Source: Vicugna vicugna (taxonomy: Eukaryota). Taken from it: a DNA stretch of 64,000 nucleotides. The stretch spans positions 1 to 64,000 of the forward strand of contig MU057640.1 of NCBI GenBank assembly GCA_013265495.1, in the 5' to 3' direction. Positions 1,740 through 63,544 of this stretch are shown in pieces; within the stretch, counting starts at the first letter, position 1, and each line of letters begins with the position of its first letter. The position numbers and the translations under genes were made by a program. The notes beneath the pieces were generated by a model. That model searched no databases. It saw only the letters and a list, made by a program, of their open reading frames with translations, and was not told the DNA's origin.

Positions 1740-1870
1740 ATTTGGGGCTTAAGCAACTTCTTCCAGGGAAGAGGCCCAGTGCAGCTGCTGTTGAACCCAA
1801 GATCTTGATTCACATCCATAGATTGGAATATTGCTGGACCAGCCATCCTCAGACTCCTCACTTAGGACAG
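1740..1870 (+). other. NUMB: NUMB non-coding 5'UTR exon (131 nt)
   Basis: Acceptor ttttctttccttgaaaatttcag| and strong donor CAG|gtaagt. Sequence (gcttaagcaacttcttcc...ccatagattggaatattg...cctcacttaggaca) resembles the human NUMB 5'UTR from memory. Confidence 0.75.
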
Positions 1871-34530: not shown

Positions 34531-35859
34531 AAAAATTATCTTAAAATTCCTTAATTAACATCTTTTCATATATTTGAATTGTGATTGAACCAACTTATCC
34601 TTATTAATTATTTACAGAATTTATTTAAAAGGACAAAAAATTATTCTCATCATTTAAAGCAAGTAAAGTAGTGCAAGAAATACTGATCAAGTAGAAAGAT
34701 TCCAAATTGTTAAGATACAGAGCAGAAAGACCTGATTTTTTTGTTTGGATTTCTGTCATGGCCTAGTAACCTCAAGCACCTCATGTCCTATGTTCATTTC
34801 TTTAAACATTTATAAAATAGGTAGTTTAAGGATTTCTTGAACATTTCCTATGTAACTTAATAAGTTTTCTTTTAAAAGATGCTTTGTAAAAATTAGATTG
34901 CCTTTGTTCTAGACAGATAGTTTTACAAATTTATGAAGAAAATTTGAAGGCCATTTTTGCAATTATTTGTTGAAAGGGGATATTTGGGGGATGGGGGTGG
35001 AAGTTCTTTATTAAATTTTTGAGCTACAGTGAACATAGTCATTTTAATAATTATTTTTATGTAATATGTCATTTTAATAATTAATATTTGTTAGACTGGT
35101 AAAATTCGTAAAAACTTAATGGTAGTATTGAGCTGTTTGAGAAAAATTATCCTATAGAATTTTTCCTTTTTTAAAAAGATTATTATATTGTATTGCTTCC
35201 TTCAAAGAAACACCTAACCTTATCTCAGATACATTCTTGGTAAATGCAGGCATTGATAGAAATCTGATTATTTATTTTAAAATTGTTCTATTGAGATTCT
35301 AAAGAGAGCAGTAGTGACAGTTTAACTTGTTTTAACTAGTAAAATGCCAGATGTAAATGGACACAATCATTCTTTTTAGTTGTAATGATAGCTCTACTCT
35401 TCTTTGATGACGTCTATTTCTGTTTTTCTCGTATAAAAATTCCTTCCTACCAGTACCAGGAATCACTCCTTCTTGACACAGCTCTTCCTGTCTTGGGCCC
35501 CTTGAATACCGCTCATTTTAGAAAGGATATGTGTGAAACGGAATTCATGGGAGAAGTTGTCAACAAACATGTCTTACTGTTTGTCTCTTTCTCTGTGTAT
35601 ATATATTTCGTATTTCAAAGATCCAATAATTTACCTCTAGGCATTTGACTTTTATCCAGGGAAATTTTATATTATGAATTAGAGGAGATTGTGATTCTGC
35701 ATTAATGTGTGGATCTTATAGTTGCTATGAATACCTGGAGTGGTCATCTTTGTTATATCATTACAATGGAGTCCTGTTTTCTGGGGGAAGTTGTGAACCT
35801 TCTCTTTTCTTTTGTGTACCTGTATTTTATTTGGATTTACCATATCAATATAATGTAGC

Positions 35860-36030
35860 AATAATTATGTTATTGACAACAATTTTGTGAGATGTTTATT
35901 ATTCTCATTTTACAGATGAGGAAACTGAGGCTTGGTGAAGTTACGAAACTTGTCCAAAGTCACACAGCTTGTAAAGTGCACAGCCAAGATTCAGAGCCAG
36001 GTCTGTCCAACTTCAGAACTCTTAATCATG
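35860..36030 (-). mobile_element. MIR SINE (exonized)
   Basis: MIR core in antisense: attttacagatgaggaaactgaggc...acttgtccaaagtcacacagct...gagccaggtctgtc. Confidence 0.9.
35916..36000 (+). other. NUMB: NUMB non-coding 5'UTR exon (85 nt) derived from antisense MIR
   Basis: Acceptor ttattctcattttacag|ATGAGGAAACTGAGG and donor CAG|gtctgt. Resembles the segment directly upstream of the first coding exon in the human NUMB mRNA as recalled. Confidence 0.78.
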
Positions 36031-36184
36031 GCCATGGAACTTTGAAATAGCTGTGAAGTATCAACCTATGATAAGTTGTATTGATACTAATATTGCTTAG
36101 CTGTTGTTTAATTCTAACTGATAATTTTTTTAATGGTGAGTTTTTTCATCCATAGTAATTTTATTGCATCTTTTAAATATTGTG

Positions 36185-36450
36185 AGAAGAAGTATAACAT
36201 AGTAATTGAGGGTCTGGGCTCTGGAGACAGCTACCTGGGTATAAATCCGTAAGCTTTTCCACTTACTTGTGTGACATTGGGAAAGTTACTTAATTTTTCT
36301 GTACCTCAGTTTTCCTATCTGTAAAATGGTGATAGTAATATTATCCATTCACCTGTTTGGTTGTTGTGAAGATTAAATGATTTAACATGTACAAAGCACT
36401 TGTAACACTGCGTAGCACACAGTAAGAATTCAATAAATGTTAACTGTTGG
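36185..36450 (+). mobile_element. MIR SINE
   Basis: tgggctctggagacag...tgtgacattgggaaagttacttaa...cctcagttttcctatctgtaaaatgg...caataaatgtt. Confidence 0.88.
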
Positions 36451-37249
36451 TATTATCATCTCCTAGCAACCAGTAAAACAGATGATCATTATTTCTAATT
36501 CTCTATTAGGAAATTTGGATAAAGCAAAGTTTAAGCAGCAATACATCACAAAACTCACATAAGCCAAAATTAAATTTAAATAAGTTTGACCCAGAGAAAA
36601 TCATACATTTGATCAAGTCCAGATCTATTGTAAAGCAGACTAGGCAGTGTTTATAGGTCTTATATGTACAAGGATATTGTATGTATGAGAACCGCACATA
36701 GGCCCACCAGAGATACCCTTTGAGCCCAGTATGGTCTTTGTATTATGAATGTGTTTTGTCTGTTTTCCACTTATAAGTGGAATTTGTATTGAGTAAATGT
36801 TCACGTTTTTAGATGGCTTTTAAGGAGATGGTGTTTTGGCAGTGTTTACAGATAATTATTAAGAAAGAAAGACTTGATGTTTTATGTAAAATATTGGCAA
36901 CATTTCATCATTTGAAGGAGTGGCTATTACTAGAATTTACATTTTGGAGAATGTGCACACTAATTGACTTTTGAACCAGTGGGACCACAGCACATTCTTT
37001 TATGTGCTCTTCACTCATACTTGTCTATTACAGCTGTCAGAGTTCTGAAGTACCATATCAACTTTTGCTGTAATTTAGTTAAATACCTGTAATTAGTGCC
37101 TGATAAGTTTATGCCAGTTGCAAAAATATTCATAAAAGGGAGTAATTTGAGTCAAGTGACGTAAAAATTCAAGAGCTGTTGTTAAAAAGAGGGGCTTGCT
37201 TTGTATATGAGCCCAGAATCTCAGTAGCTTTTAATCTACACTTGAATTT

Positions 37250-45391: not shown

Positions 45392-46234
45392 ATAGAAAAG
45401 AAGCAGTATGCTACAGAAATGAGAAACTCATAACTGGAAAGGTGATAACTACCATGAATTACAAATAGAATAAACACAAAATTGTAAAATAAGACATCTA
45501 AATCATTAAGCGTGGGAGAGGGGAGCAAGGAAATCCACTGTGAAAAACAGTATGGAGATTCCTCAAAAGACTAGGAATAGACTTACCATAAGACCCAGGA
45601 ATCCTGCTCCTGGGCATATATCCAGAAGGAACCCTACTTCAAAATGACACCTGCACCTTAGTGTTCATGGCAGCACTATTTACAATAGCCAAGACATGGA
45701 AACAGCCTAAATGTCCATCAACAGATGACTGGATAAAGAAGATGTGGTATATTTATACAATGGAATGCTATTCAGCCACAAACACTGACAACATAACGCC
45801 ATTTGCAGCAACATGGATGTTCCTGGAGAATGTCATTCTAAGTGAAGTAAGCCAGAAAGAGAAAGAAAAATACCTTATGAGATCACTCATATGTGAAATC
45901 TAAAATAAATAAATAAATAAAAGAACGTAAATACAAGACAGAAACAGTTTCATAGACAAAGAATACAAATTTGTGGTTGCCAAAGGGGCAGGGGGTGGGA
46001 AGGGACAGACTGGGATTTTAAAATGTAGAATAGATAAACAAGATTATACTGTATAGCACAGGGAAATATATACAAGATCTTGTGGTAGCTCACAGCAAAA
46101 AAAAAAAATGTGACAATGAATATATGTATGTTCATGTATAACTGAAAAATTGTGCTCTACACTGGAATTTGACACAACATTGTAAAATGACTATTACTCA
46201 ATAAAAAATGTTAAAAAAAACCCACAAGCAAACC

Positions 46235-58455: not shown

Positions 58456-59035
58456 AAATATGTTTAAAGGAAACTTTATTTTATTTCTTTTTATAAAATA
58501 TATTCTATCAAAAGGCTTTTCTAGTCCCTGCTTTGCTTAGTGCCTTCTAATAGTAAGCAAACAAGAGTCCCAAATTTCAGTATTTCAGAATGATTTTATC
58601 CTAATAAAGATGAAAGTTTTCAGAATATTTTCAGAAATTGCTAGCAGTCTATAATTTTGGCATGCATGTACAGATTTCCTTATTCAGGAGTTAGAATGAA
58701 TTTGAGAGTGGGGATACTCATTGGATTATTACTATAAAAATGTTTGAAAATTCTTAGAATAACATTTCTTCAAATCCTAATAGAGATTGTTATCGTTTTA
58801 TAAGAACTAGTATTCTAATTGTCTTCTCAGAAAGCGAAATGATTTGTTTGTGTGAAGTTAGAGTTACCCTAAGAGAAAGTATACTAATTGCTCATTTCCC
58901 CCCAAAATAAACTCTTTAATTTGGGATTCTAGTTTTTTTTAATTAGCGTAGTAATCTAAACTTTAACTTATGTGAGAAGATAATAACTTTGTTTTCACAT
59001 TTCTTTTACTCTATCTGCAGGTTTTAAAAATTAAA

Positions 59036-59161
59036 ATGAATAAACTACGGCAAAGTTTTAGGAGAAAGAAAGATGTTTATGTTCCAGAGGCCAGTCGTCC
59101 ACATCAGTGGCAGACAGATGAAGAAGGAGTTCGTACTGGGAAATGTAGCTTTCCAGTTAAG
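59036..59161 (+). CDS. NUMB: NUMB endocytic adaptor protein, first coding exon (42 codons, phase-0 donor)
   Basis: Encodes [42 protein letters not shown], the NUMB N-terminus and start of the PTB domain. Exon 59021-59161 has a pyrimidine tract plus ctgcag acceptor and an AAG|gtaaga donor; 15 nt of UTR precede the ATG. Confidence 0.97.
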
Positions 59162-60689
59162 GTAAGAGCTCATGTTTCTGTAACTCTAGATGTGGAAGTT
59201 TTGACAGTTTACTGTATGTGAAATTCCATTAATTGGGGCAGTTAAAAAAGAACACTCTAAAAGTTAATCCCTTTATATTCTGCTTCAGTGGTAGAATTAG
59301 TAAGAAGAAAAATAGATTATAATGAATGAGTTTTCTCTTTATATTTAAACAGGAATTTCTGATATATAATACGGAATCACTACAAATAAGATCGCTTTTG
59401 ATGAGAATACTAATCCTGAAATATCTGTAAATCCTGAATTATCAAGAATCAAAGTATTTTCAGTGGGATATGCTTACTAAGTGGTGGGGCAGAGGGAGCA
59501 GGAGTCTGCTTAAATACAGGCCTGGTGTGTTCTAGAAAATCTTAAATCAGAAGAGTTAAATCAAAAGAGATTTTCTCTTTAATCTTGTGACTTTTAATCA
59601 TACAGAGGTCGTTTAAACTAATGCCTTCATTTGTCAGAGCAGAAAATGGAAGCTTAAAGAGGCTAAGAACATAGTGAAGCTCTAGAGAAGGAAGTTCCAT
59701 GCAGGTGCTTTTTGTTACTGCTACTTGAAACTGGAGAAGAAGGGTTTATAATTAAGGTCATGGAAGGAATAAATGTCCATACTCTACTGTTTAGTGAAAA
59801 AAAGCAATTACAGTAATTATATAAATATGCTGTGAGATGTATTAAGTATAGGTAAAAAAAAAAAAAGGAACTAAACCAAAATGTTAATATCTTGAAGAAA
59901 AAAATTTAATATAAAGTGTTAGTATTTTTCTCTATTTTTTATAATATTCTTATGTGTCAGTATTCTTATTGTGATATTCTCTTCCATTTTACTGCCTCAG
60001 TATTATTTATTGAAATGTGGACTAAAGCTTCAGAAAGAAAAAAAAATCTATGTGACAGGAAAAGTGATTTTTAGAATCTACAGGTTAAAATGATACATGG
60101 TTTTTAAAATACACAAATTTTCCACCATATGTCAATAACTAAACATTTTCCTGATTACTTAGCTTTTTTGTCTATGCAACTTGTTTGCTGAAACTTCTTT
60201 TGTAGGAATAATAAACTTGAATATTTAATTTTATATGCTTAGTATTATATTAAAATATGAAAGTAAAAAACACCTCTCTTACATAAAAATTAACACTCTT
60301 CTCTACTACCCTCCCCCCTAGCAAAATAGTAGGTTCATTTTGATTACACAAGTTGAGTATTAAGTATATGAAAGTGGGTACTTTTAGACATTCTTGATTG
60401 CTTGAAGTATACAGTGCAACCTCATAGGGGGGCAATTTGGAAATATCAGTTAAAATTTTAAATGCAGTTTTCATTGACCAGCAGTTTTACTCTTAAGAAT
60501 AACATTTAAATACATTCATAGATAAATACTGACATGAGTGATCATTCTAACATTGTTTGTAATAGCAAAAATCAGGACATAAGTTAAATGCCATAATTCT
60601 GGGATTGGATAAAGAAATCATGACATCCATTAAGTGGAGTTCTTTGCCACTATTAAAAAAAAGAATAAGGTAGATCTATATTCACATAT

Positions 60690-62674: not shown

Positions 62675-63544
62675 CCATCATTCAAAAATCCACAAATGAC
62701 AAATGCTGTAGAGGCTGTGGAGAAAAGGGAACCCTCCTACACTGTTGGTGGGAATGCAGTTTGGTCCAGCCACTGTGGAAAACAGTATGGAGATTCCTCA
62801 AAAGACTAGGAATAGACTTACCATATAGCCCAGGAATCCCACTCCTGGGCTTGTATCCAAAAGGAATCCTACTTCAGGATGACACCTGCACCCCAATGTT
62901 CATAGCAATGTTCATAGCAGCATTATTTACAATAGCCAAGACATGGAAACAGCCTAAGTGTCCATCAACAGATGATTGGATAAAGAAAAAGTGGTATATT
63001 TATACAATGGAATACTACTGAGCCATAAAAACCGACAGTATAATGCCATTTGCAGCAACATGGATGCTCCTGGAGAATTTCATTCTAAGTGAAGTAAGCC
63101 AGAAAGAGAAAGAAAAATACCATATGAGGTGCCTCATATGTGGAATCTAAAAAAAAAAAACAAACAAACAAAGCATAAATACAAAACAGAAATAGACTCA
63201 CAGACATAGAATACAAACTTGTGGTTGTCAAGGGGGCGGGGGGTGGGAAGGGACAGACTGGGATTTCAAAATGTAGAATAGATAAACAAGATTATACTGT
63301 ACAGCACAGGGAAATATATACAAGATCTTATGGTAGCCCACAGAGAGAAAAAAATGTGACAATGAATATATATATGTTCATGTACAAATGAAAAATTGTG
63401 CTCGACACTGGAATTTGACACAACATTGTAAAATGATTATAAATCAGTAAAAAATGTTAAAAAAAAAAAACTTTCCATAGGTCAGACAAATGGCCTCCAT
63501 CAGGCTGAAAAATAAAATCAAGACTTGTACAGTAAAAAAAAAAA
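62675..63544 (+). mobile_element. Young 5'-truncated LINE-1 with 3' transduction, inserted in an L2
   Basis: ORF2 C-terminal Cys-rich motif ([18 protein letters not shown]); two A tails; perfect 17-bp TSD aatagaagaaggcctgg (62658-62674; 63545-63561). Confidence 0.95.

Follow-up and report, generated by a model that had tools for sequence, protein, structure and literature searches.

An antisense MIR-derived leader exon of NUMB carries a 32-codon upstream open reading frame that ends one nucleotide before the main start codon

Transposable elements residing in 5'UTRs give rise to about 10% of human upstream open reading frames (uORFs), according to Kitano et al. (2018, as cited in PMC10439571). 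The uORF in the NUMB leader considered here resembles these cases in that a repeat in the leader likewise supplies the upstream AUG of a cis-acting uORF; it differs from them in that the donor is an ancient MIR and not a young Alu or L1 element, that the exon is near-unchanged across orders, and that the ORF is completed only by splicing. A related situation is described for FGB (PMC4615370), where an antisense MIR in intron 1 constitutes a disease-activated pseudo-exon within a single hairpin; there, as in NUMB, the antisense MIR gives the splice sites, and the FGB case illustrates that a hairpin around a MIR exon can control its recognition. In contrast to FGB, NUMB has its MIR exon as a normal, conserved part of the leader, and the predicted hairpin involves a second, inverted intronic MIR. 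With respect to translation, uORF2 of ATF4 and the C/EBP uORF end at or beyond the main AUG and block reinitiation. By analogy, a ribosome finishing the NUMB uORF would stop too near the main AUG to use it; unlike these two systems, NUMB lacks a permissive partner uORF further upstream and shows no sign of eIF2-dependent switching, and ribosomes would escape through leaky scanning at the weak upstream AUG.

Besides being a dosage-sensitive Notch antagonist, NUMB regulates p53 and endocytosis. If its leader does hold a translational brake, whether standing or tunable, this would represent an extra control point and a site where 5'UTR variants could act. The locus is also a clean case of an ancient SINE from which one gene obtained its splice acceptor together with an upstream start codon. 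In the literature, judged by titles and the beginnings of abstracts, we found no study of a NUMB uORF or of its effect on NUMB output, and where a paper on exonized MIRs names NUMB, it does so for exon 9 only.

A uORF of human NUMB has nevertheless already been catalogued as GENCODE Ribo-seq ORF c14riboseqorf81, biotype uORF, with the peptide MRKLRLGEVTKLVQNHTTCKGHSQDSEPGCKN followed by the stop (Sandmann et al. 2023, PMC10032668, supplement file 2, row 2087). It consists of two blocks on the minus strand of chromosome 14, 73366897-73366981 (85 nt) and 73355753-73355766 (14 nt). As far as the supplement goes, the entry names one mass-spectrometry study, gives PhyloCSF scores of -36.36 (primates) and -280.68 (mammals), and assigns the ORF to the age class 'primatomorpha - young', de novo, primatomorpha being the deepest class scored among ORFs without protein-level conservation (PMC10032668). 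The window analysed here, a stretch of 64,000 nucleotides from Vicugna vicugna (contig MU057640.1, positions 1 to 64,000, forward strand), contains the camelid orthologue of this catalogued uORF, and the feature is ordinary in kind. Gene and architecture are the same, namely NUMB and 85 plus 14 nt including the stop (99 nt, 32 codons). The first 14 residues of the two peptides are identical and 28/32 agree overall, the four differences being, from window to human, S15N, A18T, V21G and F30C; the near-identity with human given in the sequence-only reading holds. The intron between the two blocks measures 23.0 kb in the window versus 11.1 kb in human. Ribosome occupancy is catalogued for the human ORF. 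What the present analysis adds to the human entry is a greater age than its label, an ORF length that stems from a lost MIR stop, predominant inclusion of the exon in assemblies, and an inverted MIR partner.

The features of the locus are collected in Table 1. The 85 nt of the MIR-derived exon lie between AG and GT, open with ATG and are free of stops in the ATG frame; the borders read ttttacag/ATGAGG...AGCCAG/gtctgtcc, or in longer form ttattattctcattttacag/ATGAGGAAACTGAGG...GATTCAGAGCCAG/gtctgtcc. The acceptor of the following exon reads tctgcag/GTTTTAAAAATTAAAATG (in the longer reading, tctatctgcag/GTTTTAAAAATTAAAATGAATAAACTACGG), and the 3' end of that exon at 59163 is followed by gtaaga. 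Joining 36000 to 59021 in silico yields MRKLRLGEVTKLVQSHTACKVHSQDSEPGFKN in the ATG frame, that is 32 codons, and then the TAA, with a single A at 59035 as the spacer before the NUMB ATG. The scripted join reproduced all of the arithmetic of the sequence-only reading, from the stop-free 85-nt exon opening with ATG and the 32-codon ORF to the TAA-A-ATG spacing. Its further statement that this is the sole ATG in the visible leader exons is likewise correct, as neither 1740-1870, the one other leader exon that could be placed in the window, nor 59021-59035 contains one, and the weak start context (cagATGa, identical in the genomic and the spliced form) and the suboptimal donor (CAG/gtctgt) it had described are both read in the window.

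Table 1. Coordinates of the NUMB leader features in the 64-kb window (a slash marks an exon border)
Feature	Position	Strand	Remarks
Upstream NUMB 5'UTR exon	1740..1870	+	131 nt, tttcag/ATTTGG...GGACAG/gtaagt; found by tblastn with N-terminal read-throughs of alpaca, camel, bat and rabbit NUMB models
MIR SINE copy	35876..36020	- (sense strand)	29 pairwise-aligned genomic copies; supplies pyrimidine tract, acceptor AG, upstream ATG and most of the exon
85-nt MIR-derived 5'UTR exon	35916..36000	+	Sequence, transcript-like records, human 85-nt block
uORF start codon	35916..35918	+	Weak context cagATGa, C at -3, A at +4; MIR consensus triplet
Donor gtctgt (CAG/gtctgt)	36001..36006	+	Suboptimal, C at +3, T at +4
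Second MIR copy, opposite orientation	36268..36338	+	Inverted-repeat partner of 35896-35966
NUMB exon with main start codon	59021..59163	+	Last 4 uORF codons, stop, 1-nt spacer, first 42 NUMB codons
uORF stop codon TAA	59032..59034	+	Scripted join; human second block also 14 nt including the stop
NUMB main ATG	59036..59038	+	A at -3, A at +4

The identity of the gene was seen from the 47 residues encoded by 59021-59161, which match 2676 proteins; the named ones among the best 120 are NUMB. All 47 residues are identical to those of Vicugna pacos NUMB models, including the five leader-derived residues VLKIK, and Camelus ferus NUMB differs in one residue over the 47-residue query. The first exon of NUMB lies outside the 64-kb window. 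The upstream exon 1740-1870 has one wholly open frame (LGLKQLLPGKRPSAAAVEPKILIHIHRLEYCWTSHPQTPHLGQ), whose phase matches that of the MIR ATG upon inclusion of the MIR exon and that of the NUMB ATG upon skipping. As a side observation, the alpaca and camel NCBI models place an ATG in a still earlier exon, outside the window, and thereby predict a 59-residue N-terminal extension through 1740-1870; with the MIR exon included, this frame would end at the uORF TAA.

Use of the exon in transcripts was assessed indirectly, by way of the fact that, when genes are called on assembled transcripts, the NUMB frame is often prolonged into the leader, so that N-terminal overhangs reveal the preceding exon. 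Among the best 120 of the 2676 NUMB relatives, 49 read the MIR exon straight into the ATG exon; all 49 are transcript-like Logan, ENA or JGI entries from species other than that of the window. Their reading, (V)KLRNLSK[IV]TQLVKGT.., corresponds to that of the window exon in the NUMB frame (GLVKLRNLSKVTQLVKCTAKIQSQ, then VLKIK-M; junction form VKLRNLSKVTQLVKCTAKIQSQ/VLKIK), and they therefore carry exactly the 35916-36000 exon joined to the 59021 acceptor. The direct splicing onto the ATG exon that had been proposed from the window is hence borne out in many species. The 49 records comprise 11 sequence variants, which differ from the window in 1-4 of 21-22 residues of this non-coding frame; the window's own variant (..VKCTAKIQSQ/VLKIK) was not among them. 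The most frequent variant within the best 120 matches, ..SKITQLVKGTAKIQSQ-AVKIK-M, is the NUMB-frame reading of the nucleotides that encode the human peptide, and from these two frames it follows by frame arithmetic that the human spacer should also be 1 nt. Record P0113 is probably human, judging by the agreement between the two reading frames. Another variant ends VVKVN-M (..QSQVVKVN-M), like the named mouse record P0064, so that a murid most likely has the exon as well.

The other 71 of the best 120 relatives have different leaders. Within these 120, the MIR exon is skipped and 1740-1870 is joined to the ATG exon in P0105, a Logan record, and in the NCBI models for alpaca, camel, rabbit, hare, Rousettus and Rhinolophus sinicus (the alpaca and camel NCBI models in this set being skipped forms); felids splice exon 1 directly to the ATG exon, and further leader arrangements of various kinds are present. 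With inclusion and skipping both represented, the MIR exon is a real, alternative leader exon. For one downstream isoform, the included form is represented on 366 contigs (P0113) and 51 contigs (P0112), versus 1 contig for the skipped form (P0105). As assemblers follow the major path, these numbers convey that inclusion predominates and nothing finer, and regulation is still compatible with them. Since the included form dominates the assembled records, the uORF seems to be a permanent part of the main mRNA rather than a switch.

The exon is derived from a MIR. A 201-nt query around it gave 413 first-look candidates in the same genome, of which 40 were scored (76-87% identity, on many contigs). 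From 29 aligned copies we built a consensus; these copies were chosen by their similarity to the window stretch, and counts obtained from them are accordingly biased toward the window. On the exon strand, the consensus reads ..ATTATTATCCCCATTTTACAG/ATGAGGAAACTGAGGCTTAGAGAGGTTAAGTAACTTGTCCAAAGTCACACAGCTAGTAAGTGGCAGAGCCAGGATTCAAACCCAGG-C-GTCTGAC... In MIRs, the tRNA-type Pol III boxes, with their B-box consensus, mark the 5' side of the sense strand. The B-box-like GGGTTTGAATCC of the 29-copy consensus is a minus-strand element that follows the exon in window coordinates. A second marker is the motif GCTGTGTG-N20-CCTCTCTG of the MIR core, which is bound by ZNF768 according to PMC6344866; it is present in the consensus, on the strand opposite to the exon, and the window copy preserves the first of its two anchors but has a diverged second one. 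The B-box-like element and the ZNF768 motif, both on the strand opposite the exon, place the MIR antisense to NUMB. A sense orientation was rejected on the same two grounds. In conjunction with the genomic copies, this agrees with the sequence-only reading, which had regarded the exon as an exonized antisense MIR.

Pyrimidine tract, acceptor AG and ATG are all MIR consensus letters. In the consensus CAGG-C-GTCTG, the GT does not stand directly behind CAG, and the NUMB donor would thus have arisen by the loss of one or two bases. The exon agrees with the consensus at 72/85 positions; for the flanking parts of the MIR the figures are 36/66 upstream and 19/45 downstream, with flank alignments that are poor. 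Of the 29 similarity-chosen copies, 23 have the AG, 18 the ATG, 5 an ATG with at least 28 open codons, and 6 a GT at the position of the exon end. With AG, ATG, open frame and GT so frequent among these copies, the sequence alone is no more than chance for a MIR; the above-chance status of the exon rests on transcript evidence and cross-species conservation, not on its letters alone. The ATG frame of the consensus reads MRKLRLREVK and then encounters TAA at codon 11, where 15/29 copies stop. At 35943-35951 (uORF codons 10-12) the NUMB copy has ACG AAA CTT, and orthologues read TKL (local peptide ..GEVTKLVQ..). Owing to this loss of the MIR codon-11 stop, the frame runs for 32 codons across the junction into the ATG exon.

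We consider it likely that this conserved antisense-MIR leader exon carries a uORF that moderately and constantly lowers NUMB output, the main doubt concerning the size of the effect and whether it is the uORF that selection preserves. Part of the scanning 40S subunits would start at the upstream AUG, whose context (C at -3, A at +4) is weak by the Kozak rule, while the rest would leak through to the NUMB AUG with its A at -3. The presence of the human uORF in a ribosome-profiling catalogue means that at least some ribosomes start there. Those translating the 32 codons would end at UAA-A-AUG and would be largely lost for NUMB, length and 1-nt spacer both being unfavourable for reinitiation. 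Reinitiation efficiency is reported to drop with uORF length (PMC5389480), to depend on intercistronic distance (PMC3131280) and to reach its optimum about 78 nt upstream of the restart site (PMC6614817); with its 32 codons and a distance of 1 nt to the main AUG, the NUMB uORF would fall on the non-permissive side. Ribosomes that terminate in the leader may in addition make the mRNA a target of nonsense-mediated decay; uORF termination has been described as resembling premature termination (PMC10187673). The net effect would be a constant, moderate reduction of NUMB made from the main mRNA form, and the 32-residue peptide itself is probably devoid of function.

Conservation bears on what selection may act upon. 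The start methionine of the uORF is kept in the human uORF and in dolphin, hippopotamus, Iriomote cat and sheep models. The Tursiops and Hippopotamus NCBI models begin MRKLRLGEVTKLVQ[SG]HTACKGHSQDSEPG, and sheep and Iriomote cat show partial forms. With the uORF intact in the window and in the dolphin (Tursiops) and hippopotamus models, and with the partial forms of sheep and Iriomote cat, the ORF is older than its 'primatomorpha - young' label, i.e., the catalogue entry understates its age (PMC10032668, supplement). At the nucleotide level, the window differs from the human-consistent records at no fewer than 3 of the 85 positions, and as most of the exon is known in two overlapping frames, there should be room for few further differences. 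Record P0123 is human-identical over the exon and continues into the intron, matching the window at 35/40 and then, after one indel, at 14/18 residues; P0122 matches at 46/52 residues, including 8/8 upstream of the ATG, and the read-through EPG/LSN across the donor is common to both records. Judging from these comparisons of translations, which for the intron are in non-coding frames, conservation of the exon and of some 100 nt of adjacent intron is far stronger than that of a neutral MIR.

ATG and frame are kept in the human uORF and in the dolphin, hippopotamus, cat and sheep models, but the frame is not universal: P0124 shifts the frame inside the exon, and P0030 (Iriomote cat) fuses the upstream ATG in frame to NUMB. 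Compared with window 35916-36094, P0124 has the same start (MRKLRLGEVTKLVQSHTA) and then takes the NUMB frame within the exon; in at least one species, provided that it uses the exon, the upstream ATG would thus share the NUMB frame. All 4 residue differences between human and window are non-synonymous, and no codon-level coding signature of a microprotein was seen in them. As all observed exon changes alter the uORF peptide and PhyloCSF is negative, selection acts on the nucleotides and not on the peptide. The near-identity of the exon and the neighbouring intron suggests a further sequence-specific constraint beyond the bare uORF, such as splicing control or RNA-protein contacts.

It is possible, if doubtful, that the exon is conserved for other reasons, for instance because factors of splicing or translation bind to it, because it serves to localise the mRNA, or because the MIR acts as an enhancer at the DNA level, and that the uORF is a passenger of low effect owing to its weak start context. 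Whole-exon nucleotide conservation exceeds what a simple uORF needs, which may make the uORF a passenger; relative to the human-consistent records, the 85 nt show no fewer than 3 and probably not many further differences, and the adjoining intron is kept too (35/40 and 14/18 residues). The strongly negative PhyloCSF scores and the fact that all three exon differences from human change the peptide are in line with this explanation, as is the report that MIR cores can bind ZNF768 near promoters (PMC6344866). Against it, the human uORF passed a ribosome-profiling catalogue, the second ZNF768 anchor of the exon has diverged, the fold of the exon is unremarkable (z = 0.30), and Rfam returned no match.

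Outside mammals, a metagenome search with the N-terminal 70 residues of P0115 as query yielded no more than two loci, one with a non-mammalian NUMB ATG exon (L011) and a NUMBL-like one from fish (L012), neither with the MIR exon. At 4990-5020 of L011, the ATG exon is preceded by a different leader (..gacgtgaaaatctgagaaATG) without the TAA-A-ATG arrangement, which indicates that the 5' part of the ATG exon is not conserved outside mammals. The scan of genome contigs with a 25-nt word from the exon gave 0 matches, and so did Rfam on 35500-36500.

The intron downstream of the exon harbours the second, oppositely oriented MIR copy. The arms 35896-35966 and 36268-36338 (71 nt, 73% complementary, 301 nt apart) form an inverted repeat whose first arm holds the acceptor, the upstream ATG and the first 51 nt of the exon. 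The predicted fold of 35880-36350 (471 nt) has -136.8 kcal/mol versus -105.1 +/- 5.2 kcal/mol for shuffles (z = -6.1); the exon alone folds no better than shuffles at the z given above. In the pre-mRNA, the predicted MIR-MIR hairpin would bury the acceptor, the upstream ATG and the first 51 nt, and it could influence exon inclusion.

This prediction touches on the interpretation advanced in the sequence-only reading, according to which the exon is a regulated cassette whose inclusion or skipping switches NUMB translation down or up, i.e., a dimmer coupled to splicing. Skipped forms do exist (P0105 and the NCBI models from the six taxa named above), the donor is suboptimal, the conserved flanking intron is typical of regulated exons, and the inverted MIR 270 nt downstream is predicted to be able to base-pair with a segment that comprises the acceptor and 51 nt at the start of the exon. 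The contig numbers for the same downstream isoform (366 in P0113 and 51 in P0112 included versus 1 in P0105 skipped) speak against a dimmer, with the reservation that they are biased toward the major path and still compatible with regulation; on the whole, we regard such a switch as unlikely. Rather improbable in its entirety is a joint reading, in which the exon and about 100 nt of intron would have been held since before the boreoeutherian radiation because a non-reinitiating uORF sets NUMB dosage, the MIR-MIR hairpin that hides acceptor and upstream AUG would tune its use per tissue, and the lost MIR stop would have turned a harmless 10-codon uORF into a repressive one.

Two further explanations carry little weight. 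That in the species of the window the stretch is an intronic MIR with splice-site-like borders and not an exon is very improbable: AG, ATG and GT are common in MIR copies, yet here both splice sites, ATG, frame and stop are intact, a mere 1-4 of 21-22 residues differ from orthologues in use, and relatives of the same order (dolphin, hippopotamus and sheep models) use the exon. Hardly credible is a function of the 32-residue peptide as a microprotein, for which there are one mass-spectrometry study of the human ORF and the 28/32 residues common to human and window, and against which stand PhyloCSF scores of -36.4 and -280.7, the classification as young and de novo (PMC10032668, supplement), a residue identity that follows from nucleotide identity, observed changes that are all non-synonymous, and the frame-shifted P0124 and P0030. 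A uORF that moderately and constantly lowers NUMB output thus remains the reading we favour.

Some observations on NUMB gene models and on other repeats of the window may be added. In four NCBI models of dolphin, hippopotamus and Iriomote cat (P0082, P0125, P0126 and P0030), the MIR ATG serves as the NUMB start. In the dolphin and hippopotamus models, the frame is regained through extra exons of repeat-like appearance that follow the MIR exon and precede the ATG exon, whereas in the Iriomote cat model P0030 the junction of MIR exon and ATG exon is itself in frame; this use of the MIR ATG may reflect lineage-specific biology or an artefact of model or assembly. Elsewhere in the window, 45817-45900 and 63064-63168 have similar translations (MFLENVILSEVSQKEKEKY.. 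and MLLENFILSEVSQKEKEKY..) and are probably copies of an interspersed repeat. Both resemble the N-terminus of P0097, a NUMB model from a lemur, a hint that some species have yet another leader exon of repeat origin.
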